Below are positions 22,291 through 62,026 of a DNA stretch of 64,000 nt, one piece after another. Both the position numbers and the translations under genes were made by a program. The notes beneath the pieces were generated by a model. The model was not told the origin of the DNA and ran no database searches. It saw only the letters and a program-made list of their open reading frames with translations. Source of the stretch: Bosea sp. (in: a-proteobacteria) (GTDB lineage Bacteria; Pseudomonadota; Alphaproteobacteria; Rhizobiales; Beijerinckiaceae); contig NZ_JBMDWH010000173.1 of the NCBI RefSeq assembly GCF_048595345.1, positions 32,221-96,220 of the forward strand. Reading direction: 5' to 3'. Numbering within the stretch: the stretch's first letter is position 1; each line of letters begins with the position of its first letter.

Positions 22291-22295
22291 ATCAA

Positions 22296-23473: not shown

Positions 23474-23503
23474 GGTTCCTGAAAGACCAGTTTAGGTCCG
23501 GGA

Positions 23504-31956: not shown

Positions 31957-32556
31957 TCAATTGCTGGGGCTGACGGAAAGCAGCGACACGCTCGATTGGC
32001 GGCTGACGCCGCCGACGACACCGAAAAACGAGTTCGGTGTGGCGTTCGATGGAATACCGGTCGCGTCAGCCGTCACCCCGCGGGCCCGCGCGCCGCCAGC
32101 GGTGGTTTCTCCGGTCGCCGGAAGTTCGGGGATCGCCTCGGTCGCGACATCGCCGACGATGCTCGTATAGGCATTGACGACCTCGGGCTTGTTGGTGGCC
32201 AGCACCGTTTCCTGAATGCGCAGCGCCGTATTCGGCTGCGAGAGCGCGCACATCGCCGCCGCGGTGCCGAGCCCTGCCCCGATCGCGCGCAACTGGTCCG
32301 CAGATGCATCATTTGCGAGCGCCGGCACACCACTCAATGTCTCAGGCCGCGTGATGGCGAAGTCCCGGATCGCAGCGGCCAGGCTGCCGCCGATATTCGA
32401 TGCCTGCCCCAGAAGGGCCGCTGGCTGGTTGAGGAACGCGGCAGCCCGTTCCGCCGTCATGTCCGGCAGAGTGCCGCAGGCGCCGTTACCGACCTGCGCC
32501 CTCGCGGTGGACGCGAAAACGACGAGAAAGGCCGCGCTGCAGAGAAGTTGTTTCAT
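31957..32556 (-). CDS. secreted hypothetical protein, two-Cys family (paralogue of 59558..60118)
   Basis: Signal peptide MKQLLCSAAFLVVFASTARA. The conserved core runs from C...F.Q.P to RAIGAGLGTAAAMC. The C-terminus is Ser/Thr/Gly/Ala-rich. Confidence 0.55.
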   Translation of the reverse strand: MKQLLCSAAFLVVFASTARAQVGNGACGTLPDMTAERAAAFLNQPAALLGQASNIGGSLAAAIRDFAITRPETLSGVPALANDASADQLRAIGAGLGTAAAMCALSQPNTALRIQETVLATNKPEVVNAYTSIVGDVATEAIPELPATGETTAGGARARGVTADATGIPSNATPNSFFGVVGGVSRQSSVSLLSVSPSN

Positions 32557-33952: not shown

Positions 33953-34167
33953 GCCCTGCCTCGAGCGAGCGACCGGAGAGAGGGGTCTACGGCCGGCCCG
34001 GCGTCATGATGCAAGGGCCGAGCCGTGGATTAGTCGACGCCAAAGCCCGAGGCAAGGCAAGGCCGGGGGGCGGCTCCCGGCTATTTCGCAGATGCGGTAG
34101 AATTGCCGCGCCGAGTTGGTGTATCCTCGGCCCGGCAGGCTCCTTGAGGTCGGCCGCAATCTGAAAG

Positions 34168-37241: not shown

Positions 37242-38471
37242 TCAGCGCCCGATGCCGTCGATATTCGCGGCACTGGAGGTGATCGGGCTGACGACGTTCA
37301 ACAGCTTGATCACTTCGATCGAGGGCGCTTCCGACACGAAGATCACATCCTTGTCGCGCAGCTGGAAGGAGTTCGCGAGGAACAATCCGTCCGGCTTGCT
37401 GAAATCGAGGCTGTAAACCGTCGGGATCGTCTCGCCGATCAGGCTCGACATATCGACGCCGCCACGTTCGAGCATCCGGCGGGATTCGGCGCGCAGCACA
37501 TAGACCGCCTTCGAGTTCGCGCGCGAGCCGTCGAGCCCACCAGCCTTGGCGAGGGCCTCGGCGAGCATCATCCGGTCATTCTCGAAGCTGAAGCGACGGT
37601 TGTTGGATCCCCCGATCGAACCGGGCGAGGGAGTCGAGCCGAAGACGAGGAAGAAGCGCGGCTCCTTCGACAGATAGATCACGTCGCCTGGAGCCATGAA
37701 GATATCGTCGGCCGGTCGCTTGATGATATCGCTCAGCATCTGGCGGACCAGCCGACTGCCGCGCTTCACCGTCACCACGGTCTCGTAGGACGGGGAGCGG
37801 GCACCACCGGCGCGGGCGACCGCGCCCAGCAGACGGATGCCGCCGGGATCGATGGCGAAGCGCAGCGGCGCGCTCACATCGCCGAGGACGCTGATCTGGT
37901 TGCCGCGCTGCTCGACCACTGAAACGACCGCCTGGGGATCGATCGCACGATCCTTGATGCGCTCGCGGATCACCGCGGCGACTTCTCTCGCGGTCAGGCC
38001 CGAGACCCGGATCGTGCCGGCATAGGGCACGACGATGCTGCCGGACTGGTCGACCTGCTGACGCGGGATATCGACGAAATTACCGGCCCGGGAGCCGGCT
38101 TCGCGCGGGATGAAAAGCCCGCCCGCGGCGGCTTCGAAAACCGTCACTGTCACGATATCGCCGATACCGATGGTGACGTCGCCGCTTCGCTTGCCGCCAC
38201 CGAGGCTCGACATGGAGCCGAGCGACGAAGCGGTGGCGCCATTGGTCGAGCGCAGAAGCTCCGGCGTGAGCGAAACCAGCGCGTAATTGACCCGTTCATC
38301 CGACAGCACCGAGAGCTGCGCATTGGCCTGAACGGACTGGATGTTGGGCGTATCTTGCGGTGTGACGCCCGCACAGGCGGACAGCAAAAGCGCGAGCGAG
38401 CTAACGGCGTAAGTGCGGGTCCGCCTGCCAAGCGCTTGGACCGAAGACCCGATGGTAATCAACTCACTCAC
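37242..38471 (-). CDS. outer-membrane polysaccharide export lipoprotein (Wza/OPX family)
   Basis: Lipobox LLLSAC. Poly_export-like GDIVTVTVFEAAAGGLF, plus SLBB-like repeats. Confidence 0.85.
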   Translation of the reverse strand: MSELITIGSSVQALGRRTRTYAVSSLALLLSACAGVTPQDTPNIQSVQANAQLSVLSDERVNYALVSLTPELLRSTNGATASSLGSMSSLGGGKRSGDVTIGIGDIVTVTVFEAAAGGLFIPREAGSRAGNFVDIPRQQVDQSGSIVVPYAGTIRVSGLTAREVAAVIRERIKDRAIDPQAVVSVVEQRGNQISVLGDVSAPLRFAIDPGGIRLLGAVARAGGARSPSYETVVTVKRGSRLVRQMLSDIIKRPADDIFMAPGDVIYLSKEPRFFLVFGSTPSPGSIGGSNNRRFSFENDRMMLAEALAKAGGLDGSRANSKAVYVLRAESRRMLERGGVDMSSLIGETIPTVYSLDFSKPDGLFLANSFQLRDKDVIFVSEAPSIEVIKLLNVVSPITSSAANIDGIGR

Positions 38472-38630
38472 GCCCGTTCCTTTATGAATAGATCCGGCAC
38501 TCGGCCTTAACAGCTAAATCGACCTCGAACCACCTTTATCGTTCGCACCTGCAGTATAGGCCGGAATCTGTGGCACGAGGGCCACGGCATTGTTTCTGCA
38601 ATGCCAGCGTCGGCGACGGCCGGGACTCGA

Positions 38631-41644: not shown

Positions 41645-43105
41645 TCAGATGCGGGCCGGCCTGCCGGCCATCGCAAGGACCATGCCGACGACCTCTTTCA
41701 CCAGGGCAGGCTTGAAGACGAACAGCGCACCCGCATAGATCGCCACACCGGCCGACGCGAAGAGCAGAATGGTCGGAACGGGCCCGAAGGCCGGCAGCAG
41801 GCTCTTCAGCCCCAGAAGCGCCGCGATCATCACGCCGGTGGCGAGCAGCGGTGCGGCGACCGCGCGCAAGGTCGCGACGCCTTGCACCCCCGTCGACCGC
41901 GACATCGTCCAGAAGATCGCGGGTGTCACGACAGCTAGGCGAATGATGTTGCCGGCAGCAGCAGCCTCGACACCATGGCGGGCGCACAGATAGGCCACCA
42001 GCGCGCTGGCAACGAACTCGAAAACGTTGATCGCCAGAACCATGCGCGTCGCACCGACCGCCATCAGCGCATTCGACTTGTAGAAGATCAGCGGGATGAA
42101 GATTGATGTCAGCGTCAGGATCTGCATCAGCGGCACGCTCGGAGCCCATTTCGCGCCGAACATCAGGGCAATCAGCTCCGGCGCGATGATGGCCGCGCCG
42201 AGAAACATCGGATAGGCGAACACCGCCGTCATCTGCACGAGGCGCAGATAGGCGCGGCCGAATGCGGCCCTGTCGTCCTGCAGACGCGAGAGAGAGGTGA
42301 GCGTCACGGCCGTAATCGGCCGGATCGAAAGCTCCTGCAGGAGATCGAGCGCCCGCCACGCGATGCGCAGATAGCCGAGGGCGACGGGACCCAGGACATA
42401 GCCCACGATCAGATCGATGATCCGCTGGTTGCCGCTGCCCAGCACCGAGGCGACCGCCAATGTCGACCCGCCGGCGAGCTGGCGCGACGCGACCCCGGCC
42501 TTCCAGATCAGGCGCGGCCACCAGCCGGTCGCATAGATCATCGCGACCAGCAGCCAGACCATGTAGATCAACCTCTGCGCCACGAGGCTGTAGACGCCAA
42601 AGCCGGTCAGCGCCATGGCCAGCGCAACCACCCCGCTCACGAATGTCGCGGTGACATTGCGGCCCGCCAACGCCTTGAACCCGAATTCCCGCCGCAGCAT
42701 GGCCTCGTAGACCGCACCAGCCGCGAACAGCAGGCAGGTCAGGGAGAGCCATTGCATCACGGGCTGCAGGCCCGGCGCCGAAAATGCCGCTTCCATCGGG
42801 CCGCTGGCAGCGAAGAGCGCGGCGGTGAGAAACCCGCCAATGCCGATGCTGGACCAGAAAGCCGTGCTCGCTTCGTCGTCATGCAGCACCTTCTGCTGGA
42901 TGACGACCTCGGTGAGCCCGGCCCTGCCGAGCGCACCGCTGAGCTCGATGAAGACCGCCGCGATCCCGACCAGGCCGAACGCCTCCGGCCCGAGCTGTCG
43001 CGCCAGCACGATGAACAGCACGAACTGGAAGACGGTCTGCCCGCCCGTCCCGAGCATCATCCAGACGACGCCGGACGCCGTCCGCCCTGCGCCCCGAGCC
43101 GCCAT
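41645..43105 (-). CDS. MOP-superfamily polysaccharide flippase (Wzx-like), copy 1
   Basis: 486 aa with about 14 TM segments and an N-terminus typical of Polysacc_synt proteins (VVWMMLGTGGQTVFQFVLFIVLARQLGPEAFG). Confidence 0.85.
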   Translation of the reverse strand: MAARGAGRTASGVVWMMLGTGGQTVFQFVLFIVLARQLGPEAFGLVGIAAVFIELSGALGRAGLTEVVIQQKVLHDDEASTAFWSSIGIGGFLTAALFAASGPMEAAFSAPGLQPVMQWLSLTCLLFAAGAVYEAMLRREFGFKALAGRNVTATFVSGVVALAMALTGFGVYSLVAQRLIYMVWLLVAMIYATGWWPRLIWKAGVASRQLAGGSTLAVASVLGSGNQRIIDLIVGYVLGPVALGYLRIAWRALDLLQELSIRPITAVTLTSLSRLQDDRAAFGRAYLRLVQMTAVFAYPMFLGAAIIAPELIALMFGAKWAPSVPLMQILTLTSIFIPLIFYKSNALMAVGATRMVLAINVFEFVASALVAYLCARHGVEAAAAGNIIRLAVVTPAIFWTMSRSTGVQGVATLRAVAAPLLATGVMIAALLGLKSLLPAFGPVPTILLFASAGVAIYAGALFVFKPALVKEVVGMVLAMAGRPARI

Positions 43106-44142
43106 CAGGATTTAACCGCTGTCTGAGCACCGAAAGGCAAAAGCGAGCGCAGCTTTCGGAGGACCAGTGAGGGCAGGAACTGGATTGAAGACGGATGCGC
43201 GGCCAGCCGTTTCAGGGTGCCGATAATACCCAGATTCCGTCGCGCCTCGAGAGTAATCAGGAATTCGTTGAAGGCGAGCATCCGCGCCCGCCTCTGTTCG
43301 ACCAGGCGCCGGGCCGCCATCGAAATGCGGGCGCCATAGGCCTGAAGGAAGTCGTCGCACGACTTGGCCTTCTTGATGTAATCGGTCTTGGTGCGGGAGA
43401 ACTCGGATATCTTGCGCGATACGGGCCCAAAGGTCGGCGTATAGATGTAAAATGCCTCTTTCGCGATCTCCATCCTGGCCTTGCAGGCGAGCAGCGCGGA
43501 GTAGAGATACGAATCTTCACCATGCCTATAGGCAGTAGGATAGGCGAGATCATTGGCCTTCAGAAAATCCGACCGGAATATCGGCTTCATCAGGCCGAAC
43601 TGATAGCCGCTCTCGACAAAATCGTAGCGGAGGAATTCTTCAAGCGTCAGCGTGAAATAGGCCCCACCGAAGTCCTTCAGCCGGTTGATGACCGCGGGGA
43701 TGGTGGCATCCGCATGATAATCGTGAATGTCGATATTGTCCGCGATCGCGTCGAGTTTCTCTGCCTGCGCACGGGCGATCAACGTCTCCAGCCGCGTGGG
43801 TTTGAAGGCATCGTCAGCGTCCAGGATCGCGATCCACTCGCCTCTCGCATGGCGAAAGCCGAGATTGCGCGCTGCCGAGGGCCCCCCATTCGTCTCCGCC
43901 TTCACCAGCCGGATGCGACCGTCGATCCTCACCATCTCCTCGACGACCTCAACCGTTGCGTCGCTGGAGACGTCGTCCACGATGACGAGCTCGAAATTCT
44001 GCAAGCTCTGATCCTGGACGGATTTCACCGCGCGCCCGATGCAGCCGGCGGCGTTGTAGGCCGGGATGACAACGGTCACGAGAGGCGTTTCGGCCTCGAC
44101 GGGGGAGGACATGCTCATGCCTTTCGGGGGGTGCGGGGTCAC
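43105..44142 (-). CDS. glycosyltransferase family 2
   Basis: VTVVIPAYNAAGCIGRAVKSVQDQSLQNFELVIVDDVSSD and ILDADD. The stop shares one nucleotide with the flippase ATG. Confidence 0.85.
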   Translation of the reverse strand: MTPHPPKGMSMSSPVEAETPLVTVVIPAYNAAGCIGRAVKSVQDQSLQNFELVIVDDVSSDATVEVVEEMVRIDGRIRLVKAETNGGPSAARNLGFRHARGEWIAILDADDAFKPTRLETLIARAQAEKLDAIADNIDIHDYHADATIPAVINRLKDFGGAYFTLTLEEFLRYDFVESGYQFGLMKPIFRSDFLKANDLAYPTAYRHGEDSYLYSALLACKARMEIAKEAFYIYTPTFGPVSRKISEFSRTKTDYIKKAKSCDDFLQAYGARISMAARRLVEQRRARMLAFNEFLITLEARRNLGIIGTLKRLAAHPSSIQFLPSLVLRKLRSLLPFGAQTAVKS

Positions 44143-45352: not shown

Positions 45353-46684
45353 TCAAGGGGCCGTGAGCTGGACCACCAGCTGATCTGCGGACTTGGAACC
45401 GGGTTCGATCACCAGCGGCACCATGGAAAGACGATCGCTCCCGCCCTGCCCCGGGTCGCAAAGACGCCGGCCGGCTGCAGGGGACCCGTCGCGATAGCTG
45501 ATCTTTCCGGCGGAATCGCGCGCCGTGGTCCAGATGACCCAGACGGGCCGGCCGCTCTTGTCCTTGCCATCAAGCCAACGCAGGCCGGGCTGGGTCCGGC
45601 GAAACTGCGCCCCCTCCAGCGAGCGCGAGAGCTTGATCGCCTCCCGATACAGGCAGGCTCCGGGCTTGGCTTTGTTGTCGTAGTCGAACAGGCCGAAATT
45701 ATCTTCGCGTTCGATCGGGTTCGTGCCGCTGTTGCGCAGCTCGTATACCCAGATGCCCTTGATCCAGCTCTGCGTCGGCGCCCACAGCGTGAACTGGGCG
45801 AGATTGGCGGCAGCCAGATCGGGCGGGATGTCGCAAGGGCCCTTATCCGTCGGCCAGCCGAACTCCGTGATGTAGAGCGGCAGCATGCGGCCCGGCGCCG
45901 CCGAACGGATCGCCTGATGAAAGGATTCGACTTTCCCGATCAGATTCTCGGCGGTGCGATCGGGCGGGCGGTTGCAATGATTGTAGAAATGGACCGAAAT
46001 GCCATCGCCCGTCTCGGCGAGCCCGGCCGCCATGGCCCGCTTGGACCAGACCCAGCCGTCATCGTCGCCGATGGAGCCGGTCAGGACCAGCGCGTCGGGG
46101 TTCTTCGCCTTGATCGCCTGATAGGCGGCCTTGGCGGTTTCGACATAGTTCTCGGGCGAGTAATCGCTGTTCTCCGAGACCGGCCCCATGGGGCCGATCA
46201 CAGGCTTGCGCGGCCGCCAACCCATGTTCCACTCGTTCCAGATCTCGTAGATCGCGTTGTATCCGCGCGTCCCGGCAACGACGCGCGATGCGAAATTGGC
46301 GAAGAGTTCGCGTTCGCGCGGGGAGGTCGGCGCGTCGCGCACGATCGGCGTGGCTGCGAGCTGGCGCCCCTTCAGGATGAGAACGGGCTGCAGCGTGCGG
46401 CTGAGAAGAACCTCGTTCAGGCGCCCCAGCTGCCTTCCGAGCGGATGGTCCGGCTCGGCAACGGTGAAAGCGCCTTCATGAACGTCGTCGCGAAAGCTGC
46501 TGACGCCGAGATCGGCGAGCAGTGGTTTCTGCGTTTCGGGCAGATAACCGCGCTGGGGAGTGAACGCGAAATGCGCTCCCACACCGAAAATGAAGTCGCT
46601 CGCCATGGCCGATGTCGAAACGGACACAGCCATGAGCAGCGCAGTCGCCGCGATCGTCTTCAGGGCGCGCATGGCCAGCCGCAT
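45353..46684 (-). CDS. Sec-exported glycoside hydrolase, (beta/alpha)8 clan GH-A-like
   Basis: Signal peptide MRLAMRALKTIAATALLMAVSVSTSAMA. Acid/base-like motif YEIWNEWN and nucleophile-like motif LYITEFGW. Paralogous to the N-terminal domain of 51800..56344. Confidence 0.7.
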   Translation of the reverse strand: MRLAMRALKTIAATALLMAVSVSTSAMASDFIFGVGAHFAFTPQRGYLPETQKPLLADLGVSSFRDDVHEGAFTVAEPDHPLGRQLGRLNEVLLSRTLQPVLILKGRQLAATPIVRDAPTSPRERELFANFASRVVAGTRGYNAIYEIWNEWNMGWRPRKPVIGPMGPVSENSDYSPENYVETAKAAYQAIKAKNPDALVLTGSIGDDDGWVWSKRAMAAGLAETGDGISVHFYNHCNRPPDRTAENLIGKVESFHQAIRSAAPGRMLPLYITEFGWPTDKGPCDIPPDLAAANLAQFTLWAPTQSWIKGIWVYELRNSGTNPIEREDNFGLFDYDNKAKPGACLYREAIKLSRSLEGAQFRRTQPGLRWLDGKDKSGRPVWVIWTTARDSAGKISYRDGSPAAGRRLCDPGQGGSDRLSMVPLVIEPGSKSADQLVVQLTAP

Positions 46685-46755
46685 CTCCTCCGACCGGTCA
46701 TCCGCCGATCCCTGCTGCACTGCACAATGAAAGCATGGCAGCATCGTGATCGCAA

Positions 46756-50682: not shown

Positions 50683-51016
50683 GACGGACTGTGCCTCGGC
50701 GCTCGAGAGGTCGCGACCTGAGGCTGCGACGGTTTGGTCGATCCGGCGCAGTGCCGATGGTGCGACAAGAGATCGAGCCAGTTCGATACAGCCTGCGTCG
50801 GCTCTATAGCGCCGACATTAGACATGGCCGGAGCATAGTTTTCGCCTCATCGCAGATCAACCGTTTTTTGCGGCACTGCAACATGATTGAGCGGCTTCTC
50901 AAACCGTGGCGTGTGCCCAATCCTGCATCTCGGAATGGCGCGATTCGCGGTCTTGGCGGGGATAAGGCGAAGGCTTGGCCTGTCCTTCGGATCGTTGCAG
51001 CCTCAAGGAGTGGCGC

Positions 51017-51763
51017 GTGGCTTCAAACCTAGGCGAAGCGGCCTTCGCCGTGCCGGACGGCGGCTGGCTTCCTGCTGACACCCGGATTTACGCGATCGGG
51101 GACGTCCATGGGCGCGCTGATCTGCTGAAGAGCGTGGTGAGCCGTCTGGTCCAGGACCTCGCCGACCACCCCGTCCGCATGCCGATGATCGTCTTCGTCG
51201 GTGATTATCTCGACCGCGGTCCGGATTCCGCCGGGGTGATCGACATCATTCTGGCGCTGCGGCGTCGCGTGGCGACGGTTTGCCTATGCGGGAACCACGA
51301 ACTTTATGCCTTGCGCTTCCTGCAGACGCCGGCAACCGGACAGGCCTGGTTCGAGCTCGGCGGCCGTCAGACCCTGACATCCTACGGGGTTTCGCCACCC
51401 TGGCAGCTTGACCCTGCCGGCCTCGAAGCGGCGTCGCAAGCCTTCGCCGAGGCGTTGCCGGACGAGCACTTCTATTTTCTGACGACGCTCGGCCTGACTT
51501 TCAGCCTGGGCGGATATCTCTTCGCGCATGGCGGGATCGCTCCCGACCGGCCGGTGGCGGAGCAGGATCAGTCGATCGTCACCATGATCCGGGACTCCGG
51601 ACCGGACCCGCTATCCGAGAAGGGCGTGGTTCTCGTGCATGGCCACACGCCGACCAAGGCCGTCGTCCTGGACCGGAATCGCCTCAACATCGACACCGGC
51701 GCCTACGCCACAGGGCGCCTGTCCTGCCTCGTGATCGAGGAGGACAGGCTGCGGCTGCTCTGA
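51017..51763 (+). CDS. PPP-family metallophosphoesterase (Ser/Thr/Tyr protein phosphatase-like)
   Basis: AAGGAG lies 6 nt before the GTG at 51017. Motifs GDVHG, GDYLDRGP, GNHE and HGH. Confidence 0.8.
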   Translation: MASNLGEAAFAVPDGGWLPADTRIYAIGDVHGRADLLKSVVSRLVQDLADHPVRMPMIVFVGDYLDRGPDSAGVIDIILALRRRVATVCLCGNHELYALRFLQTPATGQAWFELGGRQTLTSYGVSPPWQLDPAGLEAASQAFAEALPDEHFYFLTTLGLTFSLGGYLFAHGGIAPDRPVAEQDQSIVTMIRDSGPDPLSEKGVVLVHGHTPTKAVVLDRNRLNIDTGAYATGRLSCLVIEEDRLRLL

Positions 51764-51799: not shown

Positions 51800-54700
51800 T
51801 CACACGAAGAGGAAGTCAGCCGAACTCAGCTGCGCGGCCGCGATCCCTTTGAGGAGGATCGAGTCGTGGTCGTTGAAGGCCACCAGCGTGTCGGCCCCGA
51901 CGGACGAGACATGGAGAGCCTCGAAGCCGCTCGCCATGCTGGTCGAAACCTTGATCACATCGTGATTGGCCAGTGTTTCGTCGGCATGGAAATTCGTGAT
52001 GGCATCGTGGCCCCCGGTGAAGACGAAAGTGCCCTGCCCGAACATCTGCACGACATCGTTGCCGGCACCGCCGGCGAGGGTCACGCCTCCCGTCTGCGCA
52101 TAGAGCGTGTGGCTTCCATCTGCGTTCGTGACATCGATCGAGGTCAACTTTCCGCCGATGTCGTATATTTCGTGGCGGCTGGCACCCGGCTGGTCGGCCA
52201 GTGCGAATTTGAAGACATCCTTCGACGCATCGGGATTGACGATCGTTTCCATCGTCCGGTTGCCGGCCGCATCGAAATTGGTGGTGGTGCGGGTTCCGTC
52301 GCCCCCGAGCGTCCAGTGATAATCGAAGGTGCCGTCGGCATGGGAGCGGATGACCTCGTAGACCTTGCCGGAAGGGTCGGTCTTCTGGGTCTCGGTGACG
52401 TAGCTCTGCCCCTGAATGCCATAGCTCGTCGTGTATCCGCTCTTGTCGGCATTGGTGACGAAGAGGCGGTTCTGCACGCCGCCGACATAGAGCTTGGTCT
52501 CGAAATATCCGTTGGGCTCCTGATGCGTCGCCTTGGTCATCAGCCCCGAAGCGTCGTACCAGCTCATATCGGTCGTTTTGTCGGCATGGTTGACGAGCGT
52601 GGTGGTGTGGGTGCCGCCGACATAGTCCCGCGTCGTCGTCTCGCCGCCAGCCGTCTGGAGGATCTGCCGCGTCAAAAGGCCTGAGGCCGGATCGAAAATC
52701 TCGGTCTGACGATCACCGTCGCTTTCCACGAGGACGGAGTTCAGTTTGTGCCCGGCCGCGTCGAAGACCGTGGTGATCTTGCTGCCGTCGGGCGCCAGCG
52801 CGAAGTGATAGTCTGGGCTGCCATCCGCATGGGCGCGGATGACTTCGTAGACCTTCCCGGCGGCATCGATCTTCTGCGTCTCGGTGACGTAGCTCTGCCC
52901 TTTGATCCCGTAGCTCGTCGTATATCCGCTCTTGTCGGGATTGGTGACGAAGAGCCGGGTCTGGACGCCTGCCTCGTAGATCTTGGTTTCGATGAAGCCG
53001 TTCGCCTCCTGATGCGTCGCCTTGGTCACCAGGCCCTTGGCGTCGTAGGCGGTGACATCGCTCGACATGTCGGCATGCGCGACCGTCACCGTCGTCAGGA
53101 TGCCGCCCGCATAGGTTTTGGTCGTGAAGTCGCCGGCCTGGTTTTGCAGCACCTGCTGGGTGAGCAGACCATTGGCCGGATTGAAGACATCCGTCGAGCG
53201 ATCGCCGTTTGCGGCGACGGTCACCGTGTTCAGCTTATGCCCCGTCGCATCGTAGACCGTCGTGATCTTCGCACCGTCCGCCTTGGTGACGGCATGGTAG
53301 TCCGGCGTGCCGTCGGCATGGGACCGGATCACCTCATAAACCTTGCCGGACGCATCGGTCTTTTGCATCTCGGTGACGTAGCTCTGGCCCTTGATGCCAT
53401 AGCTGGTGTTCGAGCCGCTCTTGTCGGCATAGGTGATCGAGAGCCTGGTCAGGACCCCGCCGGCATAGAGCTTCGTTTCGACGAGGCCGTTCGCTTCCTG
53501 ATGCACGGTCTTGGTGGCGATGCCCTTGGCGTCGTACCAGGCGATGTCGTTGGACTTGTCGGCGTGAGCGACTGTGACGGTTGTCAAAACGCCCGCGGCA
53601 TACTCCTTCGTCGTGAAATCGCCGGCCTTGTTCTGCAACACCTGCCGGGTGAGCGCGCCATTGGCCGGATTGAAGAAATCGGTCGAGCGGTCGCCATTGG
53701 CGGCGACGGTCACCGTGTTCAGCTTGTGCCCGGTCGCATCGTAGACCGTCGTGATCTTGGTGCCGTCGGCCTGGGTCAGCGCCCGATAATCCAGTGTCCC
53801 ATCGACATGAGACCGGATCACCTCATAGACCTTGCCGGATGCATCGGTCTTCTGCGTCTCGGCGACATAGCTCTGGCCCTTGATGCCGTAGCTGGTGCTG
53901 GAGCCGCTCTTGTCCGGATTCGTGACGAACAGACGGGTCAGCGCGCCTGCTTCGTACAGCTTGGTCTCGGCATAGCCATTGGCTTCCAGATGGAAGCTCT
54001 TGGTGACGAGACCCTTGGCGTCATACCAGAGAGTGTCCTTTGACTTATCGGCATGCGCCGTCGTGGCGGTGGTCAGCACGCCTACCGCATACTCCTTCGT
54101 CGTGAAGTCGCCGGCCTTGTTCTGCAACACCTGCCGGGTCAGCGCGCCATTGGCCGGATTGAAGAAATCGGTCGAGCGGTCGCCATTGGTGGCGACGGTC
54201 ACCGTGTTCAGCTTGTGGCCGGTCGCATCGTAGACCGTCGTGATCTTGGTGCCGTCGGCTTTGGTCAGCGCCCGATAATCCGGCGAGCCATCCGCATGGG
54301 AGCGGATGACCTCGTAGACCTTGCCGGACGCATCGGTCTTCTGCGTCTCCGTGACGTAGCTCTGGCCCTTGATGCCGTAGCTGGTATTGTAGCCGCTCTT
54401 GTCGGCGTTGGTGAAGAACAGCCGGGTCTGGACACCCTGCACATAGATTTTCGAGCTGAAGGATCCATCCGGCGCCCAGTCATTGACCGTTTTCGGCAGG
54501 CCGGCAGCGTCGTACCAGGTCGCGACCTTATGGCCGCCGCTCTGGACCTCGCTGAACGACTTCGTTCCGTCCGCGCGCAGCCTTTCGAAAGCCGTCAGCT
54601 TTCCAGCGGCATCGAAGCTCGAATGCTCCGTCGCATAATCGAGACCCTTGACCCCGTAGACATAGCTCTCCTTCGAGCCATCGAGGTGCTTGATCTGCTC

Positions 54701-56344
54701 GTTGACCTTCACGCCATTGGCGTAATTGGCGTTGTCGATCGTGCCATCGGCGAATTTCGTCTGTTCCGTGGTGACGATGCCGTTCTTCAGTCCGCGATCC
54801 GTCGTCGACAGCCACGCCCCCGCCGCATCGTAGACCTCGACCTTCTGCCAGTTGGAACTGGTCTGGGTGATCGAGAACTGGTGTGCGCCGGCGATCTTGG
54901 CCAAGGCACCCTGATAATGATCGAGGATGTAGGAGAGCGTCGCTTTGGACGAAACCGGAATGGTCGGCCCGTCGGTGAGCGTGATCTTCTGCAATGTGGT
55001 CGATGCATCGAGCGTGGCCAGCTGCGCGACGATCTGCGCTCCGCTGCCGGTCACGATCGGCGCGGTCGTCACCGGCGTCTCAACGCGCGGACCCGGCCCG
55101 CCGATCTCCACGATCAGCGGATGATCGCTGATCGGCAGCACCACCTGCGCGACATTGTCGTAGACCGCGACGGGGCTCGAGCCCTGCAGCGGGTCATAGA
55201 CATAGACCTTCGACTGCACGGAGCCGAACTGCACGGTGACCTGGCTCGTGGGATTGGCGATGTCCTGGTCGCTGGCGTCGTTCCAGACCTTGGGCGCCGC
55301 CCAGACCACCAGATCGAACGCGCCATTGCTCTTGGCGAGCATCATCGCATCGCCGGCGGGCGGCAGCCCATTGATCTGATAGCTCGGGCCGCTCCCGCCC
55401 TGAACGCCGCCCTTGCCGTCGTCGGCAAGCACATAGGTCAGGTTGTGGATCGCCTTGGCCGCCAGCTTCGGCGTGCCGTCGAGCTCGAACAGACCGAAAT
55501 GCGCCTCCTTGTCGACCATGGCCGGATCGACGTTGCGGTCCAGCAATTCGTAGAGATAGGTCTTTTCCACCCCGCCCTTGAATGCCGTCACGACGGTGTT
55601 CAGAATTGTTTTGGCCTGGGCCGTCTCGCTCGCGCCAATCTCGGGTGTCGCGGCGCGGGTCGTATAACCCGTCTCGGTGATCACGGTCGGCGCCTGCCCC
55701 GCGCTCGGCCGCGCGACGCCCAGAGACGTCTCGAGCGCCGCCGAAACCGTCGAATTCGTACTCACATAGGAATGGGCGTTGGCATAATCCGACCACTGCG
55801 ACATGTCGCCCAGCGCGGCATAGTCGGCGGCGCTGTTATGCCCGAGCGTGAGATTATAGACCGGAATATCCTTCAGAACGGTGTCGGCCTTGACCGCCTG
55901 ATAGAAGTCGCGCTGGAACGCCCCGGCTGCCGCCATGCTCGATGAGCCATTATAACTGAAAGCCTGGATGTTGGCCTCGTTCAGGCCCTCGAGCGCGATG
56001 ACGCTGCCTGGGTTCGCCTTGGCGAAATCCTGGAGTGAGGCCACATAGGATTTCAGGGCCGTGCTGCCACCGCCCGGGACGCCGGAACCCACCACCAGAT
56101 CGAACTTGTAGCCTGCCTGGGCCAAGGCCGAGGCCACCGGTGCAGCTTGTGCCAACCCTGCCAGCCCATCGCGCATCGTGGTGATGCCGAGATAGTCCAT
56201 GCTTTTGCTGACCAGGGCGGAATTATCGTATCCCCGCCAGCCGAAGCCGACATGTGTATTGACGGCAATCGAGCCGACGAACTGACCGGCAGATAACACC
56301 GGAGTATTCGAAGAAGAGAGTGCCATGTCGTTCCGATATCCCAT
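51800..56344 (-). CDS. giant secreted glycanase-like protein: GH-A-like catalytic domain, ~163-aa tandem modules and an RTX/T1SS-type C-terminus
   Basis: 1514 aa with no signal peptide. The N-terminal ~330 aa carry LEGLNEAN and VITETGY. Modules of about 163 aa begin YGIKGQSYVTETQKTDASGKVYEV. The C-terminus has GGAGNDVVQ and a terminal ADFLFV. The start may be 56326. Confidence 0.85.
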   Translation of the reverse strand: MGYRNDMALSSSNTPVLSAGQFVGSIAVNTHVGFGWRGYDNSALVSKSMDYLGITTMRDGLAGLAQAAPVASALAQAGYKFDLVVGSGVPGGGSTALKSYVASLQDFAKANPGSVIALEGLNEANIQAFSYNGSSSMAAAGAFQRDFYQAVKADTVLKDIPVYNLTLGHNSAADYAALGDMSQWSDYANAHSYVSTNSTVSAALETSLGVARPSAGQAPTVITETGYTTRAATPEIGASETAQAKTILNTVVTAFKGGVEKTYLYELLDRNVDPAMVDKEAHFGLFELDGTPKLAAKAIHNLTYVLADDGKGGVQGGSGPSYQINGLPPAGDAMMLAKSNGAFDLVVWAAPKVWNDASDQDIANPTSQVTVQFGSVQSKVYVYDPLQGSSPVAVYDNVAQVVLPISDHPLIVEIGGPGPRVETPVTTAPIVTGSGAQIVAQLATLDASTTLQKITLTDGPTIPVSSKATLSYILDHYQGALAKIAGAHQFSITQTSSNWQKVEVYDAAGAWLSTTDRGLKNGIVTTEQTKFADGTIDNANYANGVKVNEQIKHLDGSKESYVYGVKGLDYATEHSSFDAAGKLTAFERLRADGTKSFSEVQSGGHKVATWYDAAGLPKTVNDWAPDGSFSSKIYVQGVQTRLFFTNADKSGYNTSYGIKGQSYVTETQKTDASGKVYEVIRSHADGSPDYRALTKADGTKITTVYDATGHKLNTVTVATNGDRSTDFFNPANGALTRQVLQNKAGDFTTKEYAVGVLTTATTAHADKSKDTLWYDAKGLVTKSFHLEANGYAETKLYEAGALTRLFVTNPDKSGSSTSYGIKGQSYVAETQKTDASGKVYEVIRSHVDGTLDYRALTQADGTKITTVYDATGHKLNTVTVAANGDRSTDFFNPANGALTRQVLQNKAGDFTTKEYAAGVLTTVTVAHADKSNDIAWYDAKGIATKTVHQEANGLVETKLYAGGVLTRLSITYADKSGSNTSYGIKGQSYVTEMQKTDASGKVYEVIRSHADGTPDYHAVTKADGAKITTVYDATGHKLNTVTVAANGDRSTDVFNPANGLLTQQVLQNQAGDFTTKTYAGGILTTVTVAHADMSSDVTAYDAKGLVTKATHQEANGFIETKIYEAGVQTRLFVTNPDKSGYTTSYGIKGQSYVTETQKIDAAGKVYEVIRAHADGSPDYHFALAPDGSKITTVFDAAGHKLNSVLVESDGDRQTEIFDPASGLLTRQILQTAGGETTTRDYVGGTHTTTLVNHADKTTDMSWYDASGLMTKATHQEPNGYFETKLYVGGVQNRLFVTNADKSGYTTSYGIQGQSYVTETQKTDPSGKVYEVIRSHADGTFDYHWTLGGDGTRTTTNFDAAGNRTMETIVNPDASKDVFKFALADQPGASRHEIYDIGGKLTSIDVTNADGSHTLYAQTGGVTLAGGAGNDVVQMFGQGTFVFTGGHDAITNFHADETLANHDVIKVSTSMASGFEALHVSSVGADTLVAFNDHDSILLKGIAAAQLSSADFLFV
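52092..54665. repeat. in-frame 489-bp tandem repeat array (4 full units at 52424..54379 plus degenerate flanking partial units)
   Basis: The unit-start codon (Y of YGIKGQ) recurs at 54379, 53890, 53401, 52912 and 52423, an exact 489-nt period. Long stretches are near-identical at the DNA level. Confidence 0.9.
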
Positions 56345-57270: not shown

Positions 57271-59493
57271 TTATTTCTCGACGTAATACCGGTTGTAGTA
57301 GACGCCCTTGTAGCCCTCGATCCGGCGCAGCGCACCGCTCTCGGCCCGATTGAGCACCGCGCCCAGGATCTTGTCATACACCGCGCCTGCACCTCCGATC
57401 GACTCGACCACGGCGCTGCGGCGCGTGCGCCCCCACTCGATCACATAGACCATGCCGTCCAGCAGGTGATTGCTCGCCTTGGCATCGGTCACCGGCATGA
57501 GAGGCGCCAGATCGACGAAGACGTAGTCGTAGCTCTCGCGCAGCTTGCCCAGCAGCTCCGCCATCGCGGTCGAAGCCATGACATCGGCGGCATTGATCAT
57601 CCGCTGCGGCACCACGGCCGGCAGCACATGCAGCCCCGATGTGCCCGTTGTCTGGATGAAGCTGGCAACATCCGCGGGAGCCGCGAGCGCCTCCAGCAGC
57701 CCTGCCTTGGCATCGCTCGCGAGCGTGCGGGTCAAAGAGCAGGTGTGCAGGTCCCCATCGATGACGATCGTGCGGTGCCCCGTCATCGCGACGAGATGCC
57801 CCAGATTGGCGGTAACCGTCGTCTTTCCTTCCTTGGGCAGCGAAGACGCGATGCCGACGACCTTCATGGGCCGGCCCATCTGGGCGGCGTCGATCGACAC
57901 CTTGATGCTGCGAAGTGTCTCCGCATAGCGCGAGAATGGATTGCCGACGACGAAATCCGACATGTAGCGCCGGCTGTCCGCACCGTCATTGCCGCGCCGC
58001 TCGAGGGATGCGGCGGCAGGCACGGCAGGGAGAATTCCCAGGCACTTTATGCCGAGATTGTCCTCGACATCGCCCGGCGTACGGAAGACGTCGTTCATCA
58101 ACTCTCGGGCGAAGGCGGCTCCTGTGCCCAGAAGCAGGCCGGCGACGCTGCCGACCGCCAGCAGCAGGAGTGTCTTGGGGGAGCTCTTCCTGTCCGGCGG
58201 AACCGCGGTGGCGATGATGCGCGCATCGGTGATCGGGAAGGTCTCCTGCTGCGTCGCCTGCTGGTACTTCTCGAGGAAGTTGTTGTAGAGCGTCCGCGAG
58301 GTGTCGGCCGCGCTTTCCAGATTGCGCAGTTCGACCTGGGTCTGGCTGGAGCTGCTGGCCTGCTTCACCAGCGTGTCGAGTTGGGTCTGGACGCTCTGCT
58401 CCCGGGCCCGCGCGATTTCGTAATCGCTCTGGCTTCCGTCTCGAATGCGCCTGACTTCGTCCTGGATCGACTTGCGCAGCTCCGTCATGCGGTTCGCGAG
58501 GTTGATCGAGGCCTGATGGTTGGCTCCGAAGCGGCTCGACCAATCGGCATATTGCGCGGACAGATCGAGATACTGCGCCCGCAGACGGGTGATCACCGAA
58601 TTGTTCAGCGCCTCGCTGACCGTCGCCTGCACGACATCCTTGTCGATGACGGAATTGACACGGTCGAGTCGGGCTTTCGCCTCGGCTGTCGCGGCCTTGG
58701 CCTGCGTCAGCTGACTGTTGACGTCCGTCAGTTCCTGATCGCTCATCAGGCCGCGGCTCGTCCCGACGATGTTGTTCTGCGCCCTGAAGGTCTGGACCGC
58801 CCGGTCGGCCTGTGTCGCGGCGTCCCGCAATTCGACGCTGCGCGCCTGCAGCCACTGCCCCGCGCGCTTCGTCGATTCGTATTTGGCTTCGAGGCCGCCG
58901 AGAATATAGGCCTCGGCGATCGCATTGGCGATGCTGGCGGCCTTGGCCGGATCGAGGGCGGTATAATTGACGGAGAGCACATAGGTCGTGCCCACGCGAT
59001 CGACCTTCAGATTGCTCTGGATCGCTTCCACGACTTTCTGGACGCGCCGTTCTTCGGAGGCAGGAGCGCTGCCGCCCGAGGACAGATGGGACAGCAGCGT
59101 CGACACCAGGCCGGGCTTGGGATTGAACTCGGGGTCGGAGACAAGATTGTTGGTGCGGACGACCGACGAGATCAGGTTCTCGGACATCAGCAGTTCGACC
59201 TGGCTGTCGACCACGCCGGTATCGATGAACGCCGCGCCGACGATCTTCTGGGTTTCCAGAAGCTGATTCTGCCGCGTGTCCATCAGGATGCGGGCATTGG
59301 CCGTGAACCGAGGCGCGGCCGTCAGGACATAGGCTGCGACGATGACGACGACCGCAGCCGCCAACCCCACGATCAAGGGCCACTGGCGCCTGAAGACATC
59401 GAGGATCTGACTGGGCGTCAGAATGGCGGGAAGCCCCATCGATGAAGCCTGGCCCGTCGGCTGAAGCGGCTCGCGCGGCATGTACATCGTCAA
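57271..59493 (-). CDS. polysaccharide co-polymerase / tyrosine autokinase (PCP-2a, Wzc/ExoP/GumC-like)
   Basis: 740 aa with an N-terminal TM segment, a Wzz/coiled-coil periplasmic domain and a second TM segment. Walker A reads SSLPKEGKTTVTANLG. The tail is Tyr-rich (EGYKGVYYNRYYVEK). Confidence 0.9.
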   Translation of the reverse strand: MTMYMPREPLQPTGQASSMGLPAILTPSQILDVFRRQWPLIVGLAAAVVVIVAAYVLTAAPRFTANARILMDTRQNQLLETQKIVGAAFIDTGVVDSQVELLMSENLISSVVRTNNLVSDPEFNPKPGLVSTLLSHLSSGGSAPASEERRVQKVVEAIQSNLKVDRVGTTYVLSVNYTALDPAKAASIANAIAEAYILGGLEAKYESTKRAGQWLQARSVELRDAATQADRAVQTFRAQNNIVGTSRGLMSDQELTDVNSQLTQAKAATAEAKARLDRVNSVIDKDVVQATVSEALNNSVITRLRAQYLDLSAQYADWSSRFGANHQASINLANRMTELRKSIQDEVRRIRDGSQSDYEIARAREQSVQTQLDTLVKQASSSSQTQVELRNLESAADTSRTLYNNFLEKYQQATQQETFPITDARIIATAVPPDRKSSPKTLLLLAVGSVAGLLLGTGAAFARELMNDVFRTPGDVEDNLGIKCLGILPAVPAAASLERRGNDGADSRRYMSDFVVGNPFSRYAETLRSIKVSIDAAQMGRPMKVVGIASSLPKEGKTTVTANLGHLVAMTGHRTIVIDGDLHTCSLTRTLASDAKAGLLEALAAPADVASFIQTTGTSGLHVLPAVVPQRMINAADVMASTAMAELLGKLRESYDYVFVDLAPLMPVTDAKASNHLLDGMVYVIEWGRTRRSAVVESIGGAGAVYDKILGAVLNRAESGALRRIEGYKGVYYNRYYVEK

Positions 59494-60461: not shown

Positions 60462-60574
60462 CAGACGAAACTCGCCCGGCGGCCATTTTTGATGCGGCGC
60501 ACAATTTTGCCTGTTTCCATGATTAATCCTGTGCTAACGTGAACTCGAAGATTGAGCGGTCCGAAGAGGCGACT

Positions 60575-62026
60575 ATGCAACCTGTCGGAAACACGCTGTA
60601 TTTTGACGGCACCCAAGCGCGGCGTGCCCCTGTGTCCCTGGGGTGGGGAGCGCTCGCTCCGATCGCTTGCGCGGCCGACGCCTTCGTCTTGATGGCCTCG
60701 GCCTTTTTGGCACCCTGGATTTATGGCGCGCTGGTGCCGGGAACGGCCGATATCGGCGGCTTCATCGGATTCGGCCTCGTCTCGACCCTGACATTCGTGT
60801 CGCTGTCCTATCTCACCGGCGCCTACGAGCCGCGAAAGCCGGGACGATACGGCGTCTGGCGCAGCGCACTTCTAGCGCTTCGCCTCTGGATGGTCGCTCT
60901 CGGCTTCATGGCGCTGTGCGCCTTCATGCTGAAGATCGGCGCCGATTTCTCACGCGGAACCGTCGCGATTTACGCCGCAAGCGGCGGTATCGCCCTGATC
61001 GGTCTCCGACGCTGGTGGCCGGACGTCGTCCGACATGCGATCGCCCGCGATCTGGTCTTCGTGACGAAGGTCATCGTCTTCCGCGTCGGGGGCAGCAAGG
61101 AGCACGATTCTCTTCGCCGGCTGCAGGATCTGAACACCCGCGGCCTGCGCCCAGCCTTCGTCGAGGAACTGCCCGCGGAACCGACCGCGGAAGACATTGC
61201 CGCCGCCGTCGCCAGGGCCGAAATGCTGATGCGGCAGGGCCATATTCAGGAGATCATCGTCGCGCCGACGGATGAGACCGCCGCTAAGGTGGATCCGCTG
61301 TTCGAAGCGTTTCGGGTCATACCCGTGCCGATCCGGCTGATGCTGACCCCGCGGATCAAGGCCATTTACGACCGCAGCATGATCCGGGCCGGCGGGCTCC
61401 TCATCGCCGAGTATCAGCGCGCTCCCCTTACGGCGCTGGAGCGCGTGCAGAAGCGGGTCCTCGATCTGGTCGTCGCCAGCCTGGGCCTCCTCCTGCTGAG
61501 CCCGCTCTTCGTCGTGACCGCGATCCTCGTTCGTCTCGACACGCCGGGCCCTGTCCTCTTCCAGCAGAGGCGCCGGGGCTTCGGCGGCAAGACCTTCAAC
61601 ATTCTGAAGTTCCGGTCCATGACCGTCGCCGACAATGGCGCCTCGATCGAACAGGCCAAGAAGAACGATGCGCGCGTCACCCGCGTAGGCAAGCTGATCC
61701 GGCGCACCAGCATCGACGAACTGCCCCAGTTGCTCAACGTGCTGGCGGGGCAGATGTCGATCGTGGGCCCCCGGCCACACGCCGTCGCGCATGATGATTA
61801 TTACGCCCGCTTCATCGAATCCTATGCGTTTCGCCACCATGCCAAGCCCGGCCTGACGGGCTGGGCGCAGGTCAAGGGCTTGCGCGGGGAGACGCCGAAG
61901 ATCGAGAATATGGAGGCACGGATCGAGAAGGATCTGTGGTACATCAACAACTGGTCGATCTGGCTCGACATCTCGATCATCCTGCGCACGATGGTCGTCG
62001 TCCTCAGGCAGAAAACCGCCTACTGA
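60575..62026 (+). CDS. polyprenyl-phosphate hexose-1-phosphate transferase (WbaP/ExoY-type priming glycosyltransferase)
   Basis: GAAGAGG lies 5 nt before the ATG at 60575. The protein has N-terminal TM segments and a C-terminal Bac_transf domain (PGPVLFQQRRRGFGGKTFNILKFRSM ... DELPQLLNVLAGQMSIVGPRP). Confidence 0.9.
   Translation: MQPVGNTLYFDGTQARRAPVSLGWGALAPIACAADAFVLMASAFLAPWIYGALVPGTADIGGFIGFGLVSTLTFVSLSYLTGAYEPRKPGRYGVWRSALLALRLWMVALGFMALCAFMLKIGADFSRGTVAIYAASGGIALIGLRRWWPDVVRHAIARDLVFVTKVIVFRVGGSKEHDSLRRLQDLNTRGLRPAFVEELPAEPTAEDIAAAVARAEMLMRQGHIQEIIVAPTDETAAKVDPLFEAFRVIPVPIRLMLTPRIKAIYDRSMIRAGGLLIAEYQRAPLTALERVQKRVLDLVVASLGLLLLSPLFVVTAILVRLDTPGPVLFQQRRRGFGGKTFNILKFRSMTVADNGASIEQAKKNDARVTRVGKLIRRTSIDELPQLLNVLAGQMSIVGPRPHAVAHDDYYARFIESYAFRHHAKPGLTGWAQVKGLRGETPKIENMEARIEKDLWYINNWSIWLDISIILRTMVVVLRQKTAY

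Follow-up and report, generated by a model that had tools for sequence, protein, structure and literature searches.

The size of exopolysaccharides governs biofilm behaviour and, in rhizobia, symbiotic signalling, and the well-studied secreted enzymes that trim them (ExsH, ExoK and PlyA/B) come from Sinorhizobium and Rhizobium only. ExsH and ExoK are GH16 β-jelly-roll enzymes. They form a glycanase pair, of which ExoK is Sec-dependent and ExsH/EglC, which carries several RTX repeats, is exported by a type I secretion system (T1SS). Jointly they yield the low-molecular-weight succinoglycan of Sinorhizobium meliloti (PMC4916376). PlyA and PlyB are T1SS-secreted exopolysaccharide glycanases with a non-TIM catalytic architecture (PMC2275737). 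In R. leguminosarum/johnstonii 3841, a further protein, RL2412, was found in the culture supernatant in a PrsDE-dependent manner; it is leaderless and combines an N-terminal weak-GH domain with C-terminal RTX repeats (PMC2275737).

Three other groups of proteins bear on the present case. PslG of Pseudomonas aeruginosa (GH39) joins a TIM barrel to a β-sandwich and is encoded within the cluster of the exopolysaccharide that it cleaves. It is a membrane-anchored periplasmic protein of ~440 residues, without repeat ribbon or T1SS tail. The Rhs/YD proteins (T6SS Rhs effectors, TcB/TcC, teneurins) are built from antiparallel hairpins of ~23 residues with a YD-type turn, and up to now such hairpins are known from the closed cocoons of Rhs proteins and teneurins, of which they form the wall. 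Family I.3 lipases and serralysins carry RTX β-rolls of 5 to >12 repeats.

Here we describe a gene of Bosea sp. found in a 64-kb stretch of DNA (64,000 nucleotides, hereafter the window), the product of which is most likely a variant of the ExsH/PlyA kind of type I-secreted exopolysaccharide glycanase and not an Rhs toxin. As with ExsH and ExoK, a Sec-type partner accompanies it. Unlike them, it has a GH-A TIM barrel with a β-sandwich as catalytic domain and, in contrast to ExsH, it contains a long hairpin ribbon and a single RTX repeat.

Organization of the Gene and Its Product

The initial annotation had reported an open reading frame of 1514 residues lacking an N-terminal signal peptide, and both observations hold. 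The N-termini of the homologues align from M7, so that 56326 is the likelier start and, judged from these alignments, probably the true one. Counted from M7, the product has 1508 residues (159.5 kDa, pI 5.47) and no cysteine. The N-terminus of the ORF, MALSSSNTPVLSAGQFVGSIAVNTH, leads directly into the first strand of the barrel. Searches with the whole 1514-residue protein against Pfam, NCBIfam and PDB sequences gave no significant match; the protein was therefore divided into domains, which were searched with profiles. The parts are collected in Table 1.

Table 1. Parts of the protein and the partner glycanase, with positions in the window; residues are numbered from M1.
Feature	Position	Strand	Basis
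Whole ORF, 1514 aa	51800..56344	(-)	
(β/α)8 barrel, clan GH-A type, aa ~16-306	55427..56299	(-)	AF2; Foldseek (PslG/GH39, GH30, GH79, GH17); PDB profile to GH17
N122-E123 (LNEAN), predicted acid/base pair, just past strand 4	55976..55981	(-)	Invariance and model position
E224 (ITETG), predicted catalytic nucleophile, end of strand 7	55673..55675	(-)	Invariance and alignment with GH17 nucleophile region
β-sandwich packed behind the barrel, aa ~322-414	55103..55381	(-)	AF2, Foldseek; two-domain layout as in PslG, GH39, GH30
Conserved linker or small domain, aa 421-500	54845..55084	(-)	Without Pfam match; low pLDDT at model edge
Degenerate leading ribbon hairpins, aa 501-639	54428..54844	(-)	33-40% identity to modules
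Modules U1-U4, full copies of 163 aa each, aa 640-1291; per module 14 β-strands = 7 YD-type hairpins	52472..54427	(-)	
Incomplete fifth module with terminal hairpins, aa 1292-1424	52073..52471	(-)	
C-terminal type I secretion-type domain, last 100 aa, end DFLFV	51803..52102	(-)	Profile and NCBIfam matches
Lone canonical RTX nonapeptide GGAGNDVVQ	52046..52072	(-)	
Sec-signal paralogous GH-A hydrolase, partner glycanase	45353..46744	(-)	Pfam Cellulase E=7e-6; BLASTP; signal peptide

The Catalytic Domain

The AF2 model of the N-domain (pLDDT 84.5, pTM 0.87) contains eight strand-helix units. With this model Foldseek returned 273 matches at E<=1e-3, the best 50 of which are all GH-A-type barrels. 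The top of the ranking is occupied by PslG (4zn2, 9g17 and 5bx9; E=7e-18 to 2e-16, TM 0.63-0.68), followed by GH39, GH30, GH79 and GH17. The β-sandwich belongs to the catalytic part and thus gives it a PslG-like shape. The initial annotation had read residues ~1-330 as a clan GH-A hydrolase and proposed fold prediction with a fold search as the check. A GH fold is indeed predicted with high confidence; the TIM barrel and the catalytic residues of that reading stand, but it was incomplete in missing the sandwich.

At the level of sequence, the best match was GH17, obtained by a PDB profile (E=4e-5) that spans the nucleophile and hFGLF motifs and is limited to the C-terminal third of the barrel. 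The GH17 model of Pfam (PF00332) does not match the query protein, and a short RTX-type relative, P0158, reaches 17.8 bits with it against a cutoff of 28.2. GH39 is likewise without a Pfam match on the query, and sequence identity to PslG is just 15-16%. No Pfam or NCBIfam model matches the catalytic domain.

The expected catalytic residues are strictly conserved. All of 20 orthologues carry LNEAN and ITETG unchanged, and N122-E123 and E224 are invariant also in 13 distant relatives of the RTX type. N122-E123 is placed after the strand VIALEGL and E224 within TVITETG. Modelling shows the N-terminal ~410 residues (aa 7-414) as a predicted enzyme of the retaining type of clan GH-A, with E123 as putative acid/base and E224 as putative nucleophile.

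The C-Terminal Domain and Type I Secretion

A tail typical of type I secretion, with one RTX nonapeptide and the terminus ADFLFV, had been noticed before, and profile searches bear it out. The nonapeptide lies at exactly the positions given in Table 1. The lack of a signal peptide and of cysteines and the acidic pI are likewise those of a T1SS substrate. The tail profile matched the family I.3 lipase 2z8x of Pseudomonas sp. MIS38 (E=7e-6, residues 528-612 of 617) and protease C of Erwinia, 1k7i (E=3e-4, residues 369-465 of 479), and in these alignments the last ~90 residues of the query pair with the final RTX repeat and the C-terminal capping/secretion region of the two proteins. The C-terminus of the polyurethane esterase PueAB also aligns with the tail, as its NCBIfam model matched at E=3e-9 (positions 520-615 of 616), along with EglC and TIGR03661. 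The EglC model matches the C-terminal region in 17 of 21 family members. In contrast to the lipases and serralysins, the query has a single canonical nonapeptide, with the ribbon in the place of the β-roll, and the Pfam HemolysinCabind model stays below threshold on it (E=0.005; 17.2 bits, cutoff 23). Relatives that share the catalytic domain bear strong RTX arrays and serralysin C-terminal domains, and this C-terminal domain was found in 43 of 146 representatives. By these profiles, the last 100 residues are homologues of the RTX cap/secretion-signal region in proven T1SS substrates.

Genes for the ABC and MFP components of a T1SS were absent from the window, as had been noted before, by Pfam scans of ~44 further ORFs and by tblastn with ABC and MFP queries. 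Elsewhere, an ABC+MFP pair adjoins the gene in six related loci (L004, L005, L006, L007, L043 and L081), of which L004-L007 are the orthologue loci of Bosea sp. ASV33, a related MAG and two Sphingomonas. Most Bradyrhizobium loci are without ABC/MFP genes nearby.

RL2412 as a Likely Secreted Relative

A genome scan, complemented by a plasmid check of the published C-terminal identity to pRL90140, led to an ORF of R. leguminosarum Tri-43, which encodes 620 residues (64.7 kDa) with four RTX repeats. A search with P0158 was dominated by RTX-only matches. The Tri-43 ORF shares the catalytic domain of the query (36% identity to the N-domain, E=9e-70), and over its last 152 residues it shows 74% identity with a gene that strain 3841 carries on plasmid pRL9. 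The published C-terminal identity between RL2412 and pRL90140 is 76%. The ORF is the probable orthologue of RL2412, matched by descriptions and not by locus tag, and RL2412 is therefore a likely member of the query's family. It differs from the query in its length of 620 residues, its four RTX repeats, the want of a hairpin ribbon and its location outside an exopolysaccharide cluster.

Genomic Context and Family

The gene is located inside a Wzx/Wzy exopolysaccharide cluster. Among the genes of the window are those for Wza, Wzc, Wzx, a priming transferase, GT2/GT4 glycosyltransferases, acyltransferases, UGDH and ManC. Orthologues in Bradyrhizobium, Bosea and Sphingomonas likewise lie in exopolysaccharide clusters; such genes were found within 6 kb in 64 of 80 genome loci, and a Sec-type paralogue is present in 46 of the 80. 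The cluster context and the pairing of a Sec with a T1SS glycanase, both suggested by the initial annotation, are thus real and recurrent. The motif likeness which it had seen to the Sec-signal hydrolase beginning at 45353 is also real but weak: BLASTP aligns that product with the N-domain from the nucleophile strand through the β-sandwich at E=1e-5 and 23% identity.

The catalytic domain defines over 5,600 sequence clusters. Neither Pfam nor NCBIfam recognises any of them, and this marks a gap in the databases. Orthologues of the query number hundreds. Some are named 'Endo-1,3-beta-glucanase btgC' in UniRef, and the NCBI label is 'RHS repeat protein', a name that, given to the long forms, leads readers to think of toxins instead of polysaccharide processing. 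The three-part architecture had been called unfamiliar. This is correct insofar as a literature search found no described family joining GH, YD repeats and type I secretion, but the architecture is not rare. In the paper on a USDA110 cluster, only a 'putative glycosyl hydrolase', blr2359, is mentioned (PMC8707904); the Bradyrhizobium loci examined here look like a different cluster, and so no link to blr2359 is claimed.

Proposed Function and Alternatives

Taken together, the protein is probably an extracellular glycanase for the exopolysaccharide of the surrounding Wzx/Wzy cluster, exported in one step by type I secretion. An ABC/MFP/TolC system encoded outside the window would recognise the C-terminus, and the cysteine-free, unfolded chain would be threaded out C-terminus first, so that the ribbon and then the enzyme would fold outside the cell. 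After export the enzyme would cut the cell's own polymer and either set its chain length or free low-molecular-weight fragments. The periplasmic Sec-type paralogue would work alongside it, and the two would mirror ExoK and ExsH of Sinorhizobium. In this scheme the ribbon may act as an extended spacer, a polysaccharide-binding track, or both, which is the least certain step. The family would then be the equivalent trimming enzyme for Bradyrhizobium, Bosea and Sphingomonas.

Since GH17 β-1,3-glucanases and transglycosylases are the nearest among solved structures by sequence, a foreign β-glucan substrate or transglycosylation is conceivable. The former would make the protein a secreted enzyme that attacks β-1,3-glucans of plants or fungi, the matrix of other microbes or similar foreign glycans and serves nutrition, invasion or competition. 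We regard this as unlikely. It would account for the outcome of the sequence searches, in which GH17 β-1,3-glucanases are the sole match among solved structures, for the btgC name in UniRef and for the location of short RTX-type Rhizobium relatives outside exopolysaccharide clusters; moreover, plant cell-wall degradation was considered for RL2412 by its authors (PMC2275737). However, the long ribbon form sits in exopolysaccharide clusters of three genera together with a Sec-type paralogue, and the best structural match, PslG, is itself a cluster-encoded exopolysaccharide hydrolase.

Transglycosylation would place the protein on the biosynthetic side, either as a transglycosylase or as a non-hydrolytic scaffold for polymer assembly or export. 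GH17 includes glucanosyltransferases (4wtr and 4wtp are among the Foldseek matches), PslG also affects Psl biosynthesis, and ExpE1 of S. meliloti, which is T1SS-secreted, is needed for galactoglucan production. However, a GH-A enzyme of the retaining type that keeps its NE/E pair intact is usually a hydrolase, and the full Wzx/Wzy/Wza/Wzc machinery is already in the cluster, which makes a biosynthetic role quite improbable.

A surface-retained matrix protein or adhesin of the LapA type carries equally little weight. In such a case the folded N-domain would keep the protein lodged in the secretion channel, the ribbon would be displayed outside the cell, and the BTLCP of the cluster (Peptidase_C93, LapG family, 31152-31820) would release the protein. 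The presence of this gene speaks for the idea, as do the giant size and repetitive build of the protein together with its T1SS tail, a TAA[E/D/Q] motif directly behind the β-sandwich in many orthologues, and the arrangement at L006, where a BTLCP gene lies ~4 kb upstream of the orthologue and the T1SS pair downstream. Against it, the TAA[E/D/Q] site reads SGAQ in the query and TAGE in the L006 orthologue; both are without the di-alanine, and the LapG/BTLCP idea is given low weight for this reason. No LapD-like GGDEF/EAL gene was found in the Pfam scans of the window ORFs, a TIM barrel of 300 residues with conserved catalytic residues is no known retention module, and RL2412 was recovered free in the supernatant (PMC2275737).

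The Hairpin Ribbon

Between the catalytic part and the tail, the glycanase proposed above is filled by repeats. The 163-residue module, noted before as four full copies with degenerate partial ones, could be reproduced: its anchors fall at aa 655, 818, 981, 1144 and 1307, U1-U4 are 64-84% identical to each other, the partial fifth copy retains ~50% identity, and at the DNA level the repeat has a period of 489 bp (4.3 copies, 78% matches). The lengths of orthologues differ in steps of ~162 residues; read from these sequences, the number of modules is variable among them. The elementary unit is an antiparallel hairpin of ~23 residues, made of two strand-turn units of ~11.6 residues, with a YD-type turn. 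In the AF2 model of this region (549 residues modelled; pLDDT 93.8, pTM 0.64), a row of ~39 successive hairpin strands gives way to shorter ones in the C-terminal domain. Modelling shows aa ~500-1424 (~925 residues) as one continuous predicted antiparallel ribbon of YD-type hairpins.

Foldseek matched the ribbon to Rhs shells and to engineered single-layer sheets of OspA locally only (E~1e-12 to 1e-13), with query-normalised TM of 0.10-0.26. For the Rhs shells TM is 0.10-0.15 and the rmsd >40 Å. The description of the hairpins as YD-like is weak on the query itself, as Pfam RHS_repeat on one of its modules gives E=0.22. It finds indirect support in these local matches and, by transitive homology, in the relative P0165, in which RHS_repeat (E=1.8e-12) lies inside the region matching the module profile of the query.

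The likeness to Rhs/YD proteins has its limits, since the query has no closed cocoon, RHS core, toxin or T6SS link and its hairpins are grouped into a higher-order module of variable copy number. An Rhs/YD polymorphic toxin, in which a YD cocoon delivers a toxic C-terminal domain, is suggested by the NCBI/UniRef names, by the local Foldseek matches to T6SS Rhs effectors (E~1e-13) and by the Pfam-significant RHS_repeat of P0165, but it is hardly credible and was rejected: the RHS core/autoproteolysis motif and any NCBIfam or Pfam RHS match are missing from the query, the superposition on Rhs shells is poor, the C-terminus is a T1SS-type domain, Pfam scans of the window ORFs revealed no VgrG, PAAR or immunity genes nearby, the module number varies among orthologues, and the N-terminus holds a conserved catalytic GH.

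For the secreted glycanase, we tentatively propose that an open, length-adjustable ribbon of ~80-90 YD-type strands replaces the RTX β-roll of a T1SS substrate. It might serve as a ruler or as a polysaccharide-binding track that sets the reach or processivity of the enzyme on nascent exopolysaccharide and so helps determine chain length, a possibility that we hold as doubtful. An open YD-hairpin ribbon in a T1SS substrate would, if true, put a well-known repeat to a new use. If flat, a ribbon of roughly 80-90 such strands would measure several tens of nanometres.

Gene model and database names

The giant gene is present in the window as the 1514-aa ORF described in the initial annotation, the numbering of which is kept here. 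Since all homologues start at query residue 7 (M7, the second ATG), the true start was placed, on this alignment evidence, probably at the ATG at 56326 and not at the first ATG at 56344. The product from M7 has 1508 aa, 159.5 kDa, a pI of 5.47 and zero cysteine. It shares 99% identity with WP_420103486.1 (Bosea sp.) and 74% with a Bosea sp. ASV33 protein. Orthologues are named 'RHS repeat protein' or 'beta strand repeat-containing protein' by NCBI, 'trimeric autotransporter adhesin' and 'antitoxin YwqK', among others, by JGI, and 'Endo-1,3-beta-glucanase btgC' by UniRef; none of these reflects the full architecture of catalytic N-domain, hairpin ribbon and C-terminal domain.

Features of the giant gene and its surroundings
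Feature	Position	Strand	Remarks
Flagellar block	3937-16327		Upstream of polysaccharide region; FlhA, FliG, FliF, FliK-like protein, sigma-54 activator
Lipid block	19231-26876		Two cyclopropane-fatty-acyl-phospholipid synthase-like genes, DUF1295, DUF1365, amine oxidase, ChrR-type cupin; resembles a stress-regulated operon for lipid modification
BTLCP/LapG-family cysteine protease (Peptidase_C93)	31152-31820	minus	Beside Wzy_C protein
Wzy_C protein	32486-34003	minus	Next to Peptidase_C93 gene
ORF, up to 457 aa	34165-35538	plus	No Pfam match
Wza	37242-38513
Wzx flippase	41645-43111
Sec-type hydrolase	45353-46744	minus	Clear signal peptide
ORF, 513 aa	46756-48297	minus	No Pfam match; may be a Wzy-type polymerase
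Calcineurin-like phosphoesterase	50975-51763	plus	Directly adjoins giant gene
Giant gene	51800-56344	minus	1514 aa counted from the first ATG
RTX nonapeptide	52046-52072		Within giant gene
ORF, up to 271 aa	56440-57255	minus	No Pfam match; one predicted membrane helix; between Wzc and giant gene
Wzc	57271-59493
Priming transferase	60527-62026
Glycosyltransferases			One GT2, several GT4
Acyltransferases
Sugar-nucleotide genes			UDP-glucose dehydrogenase, GDP-mannose pyrophosphorylase, phosphoglucomutase

Catalytic N-domain

Pfam and NCBIfam gave no match at all, either on the whole query or on the isolated N-domain. A profile of 20 orthologous N-domains retrieved plant and bacterial GH17 beta-1,3-glucanases from the PDB, the best (E=4e-5) aligning across the nucleophile strand (ITETGW) and the hFGLF motif. 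The AlphaFold2 model built on this alignment is confident (pLDDT 84.5, pTM 0.87) and comprises an eight-fold beta/alpha barrel (aa ~16-306) followed by a beta-sandwich (aa ~322-414). Its best Foldseek matches were three structures of Pseudomonas aeruginosa PslG (E=7e-18 to 2e-16, TM 0.63-0.68), followed by GH39 xylosidases, GH30, GH79 heparanase and GH17. Asn122-Glu123 after strand 4 and Glu224 at the end of strand 7 are invariant in close orthologues and also in 13 distant relatives (30-38% identity). Given the predicted barrel and these invariant residues, assignment to the retaining hydrolases of clan GH-A, the clan named in the initial annotation, is well supported for both fold and catalytic apparatus. 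By sequence criteria, the domain does not qualify as a member of GH17 or GH39.

The Sec-type hydrolase of the same cluster is a distant paralogue: the likeness noted earlier from motifs was recovered by BLASTP (E=1e-5, 23% identity), in an alignment that begins at the nucleophile strand and runs through the sandwich.

Just past the sandwich (aa ~425-433), most orthologues carry SGTAA[E/D/Q]IVA, which resembles the di-alanine context of LapG cleavage. The query reads TGSGAQIVA there (window ~55046-55072). As Ala-Ala is absent from both the query and the orthologue of a related MAG, the site may be merely a helix cap.

Hairpin ribbon

The module of ~163 aa proposed earlier, with four full copies and degenerate partial ones, is borne out: anchor motifs recur at exactly 163 aa, the four full modules (aa 640-1291) share 64-84% identity, and a degenerate leading copy and a partial fifth copy flank them. 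The DNA repeats with a period of 489 bp (4.3 copies, 78% matches). AlphaFold2, run on the last 549 aa only with 18 aligned sequences, gave a pLDDT of 93.8 and ~39 consecutive strands of 5-8 residues joined by tight D/N-x-G turns, with 14 strands per module and shorter strands in the C-terminal domain. The model thus depicts the repeat region as one uninterrupted antiparallel hairpin ribbon.

Foldseek matched the ribbon at E~1e-12 to T6SS Rhs effectors, teneurins, TcB/TcC and engineered single-layer OspA sheets, but with query-normalised TM of only 0.10-0.26 and rmsd of 15-47 Å; therefore, the elementary hairpin is common to them while the overall shape is not. The earlier description of the hairpins as YD-repeat-like stands only indirectly. 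Pfam RHS_repeat is not significant on the query itself (E=0.22), whereas in P0165, a relative with the same N-domain, it reaches E=1.8e-12 within the stretch matched by the query module profile (full-sequence E=6e-80). By such transitive homology, the query hairpins are assigned to the YD type. An Rhs toxin, as the name 'RHS repeat protein' would have it, was rejected: the Rhs core motif was not found in the query, PDB profile and NCBIfam searches gave no toxin domain at the C-terminus, and Pfam scans gave no T6SS genes around the gene.

Orthologue lengths step by ~162 aa (1130, ~1291-1302, ~1453, 1508, 1608, ~1717), a pattern more in keeping with a linear element that can lengthen than with a closed shell. 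Relatives P0174, P0135 and P0137 have supermodules of ~117-118 aa against 163 aa in the query; the higher-order period is therefore lineage-specific. What the ribbon does is a matter of inference.

C-terminal domain, secretion and family

The last 100 aa are conserved in every orthologue and end in D/N-F-L-F-V. Their profile matched residues 528-612 of 617 of the Pseudomonas sp. MIS38 family I.3 lipase (E=7e-6) and residues 369-465 of 479 of Erwinia protease C (E=3e-4), both the extreme C-termini of classical type I secretion substrates. Among NCBIfam models, the C-terminus of polyurethane esterase PueAB was matched at E=3e-9, S. meliloti glycanase EglC for 17 of 21 members, and TIGR03661 weakly. 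The type I tail recognized in the initial annotation is thereby supported, and its single canonical RTX nonapeptide was located exactly.

In both Sphingomonas loci, the giant gene is directly followed by a transporter pair, made up of an ABC protein bearing a C39-like domain and a membrane-fusion protein of the HlyD/AprE type; the pair lies 1.6 kb downstream in Bosea sp. ASV33 and 2-5 kb downstream in the related MAG, and two more genome loci share the arrangement. In the window itself, neither Pfam scans of ~44 further ORFs nor tblastn with ABC and membrane-fusion proteins from related loci found such genes, as stated before.

An exhaustive search with the N-domain profile returned 5,611 clusters at E<=1e-3. 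The domain almost always opens the protein, with variable extensions behind it; members that were sampled had strong RTX arrays, serralysin C-terminal domains, Big domains or CBM60. The hairpin ribbon is present in 35 of 146 representatives and the C-terminal domain in 43. The member from Rhizobium leguminosarum Tri-43 (620 aa, 64.7 kDa, four consecutive RTX repeats) aligns with the query N-domain at 36% identity (E=9e-70); over its last 152 aa, it shares 74% identity with a gene for a beta-helix protein on pRL9, a plasmid of strain 3841. As published, RL2412 (64.6 kDa) combines an N-terminus of weak GH similarity with four RTX repeats, and its last 150 aa share 76% identity with pRL90140; it was found in culture supernatant, and its secretion was credited to PrsDE, a type I system (PMC2275737). 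These agreements therefore argue strongly that the two correspond, by description and not by locus tag. Type I secretion of the query, as first proposed, is well supported by homology, gene linkage and this experiment on a probable family member.

Exopolysaccharide context and substrate

Pfam scans place the giant gene inside a complete Wzx/Wzy-type exopolysaccharide cluster. The architecture recurs in long-form orthologues of Bradyrhizobium, Bosea and Sphingomonas, all amid glycosyltransferases, flippase, acyl-/pyruvyl-transferases, Wza or Wzc. Exopolysaccharide genes lie within 6 kb at 64 of 80 genome loci (one per species), and 46 also have the Sec-type paralogue, in line with the Sec/T1SS glycanase pair suggested at the outset. 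The pairing parallels ExoK and ExsH, which jointly yield low-molecular-weight succinoglycan (PMC4916376). Genomic context points to the exopolysaccharide of the cell itself as the best-supported candidate substrate. Short RTX-type Rhizobium members lie outside such clusters, so one substrate need not serve the whole family. The initial observation is confirmed and its interpretation supported. Systems in which an exopolysaccharide glycanase leaves by a T1SS and has a Sec-type partner are already known; this protein departs from them in its GH-A/PslG-like catalytic module, in having a YD-hairpin ribbon where an RTX beta-roll would be and in how large its unrecognised family is, and it merits experimental follow-up.

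In the related MAG and Bosea sp. ASV33, a calcineurin-like phosphoesterase gene lies between the giant gene and the transporter pair; in this Bosea the pair is missing after it, which suggests rearrangement. The ORF between Wzc and the giant gene is conserved in position in ASV33 (234 aa) and the MAG (248 aa). BTLCPs normally process type I-secreted adhesins; the orthologous cluster of the MAG has the same BTLCP and Wzy_C pair (2952-5809) ~4 kb upstream of its giant gene. In the ORF of up to 457 aa, first codon positions are unusually poor in GC; this ORF falls within the part of the window where GC is lowest (0.595).
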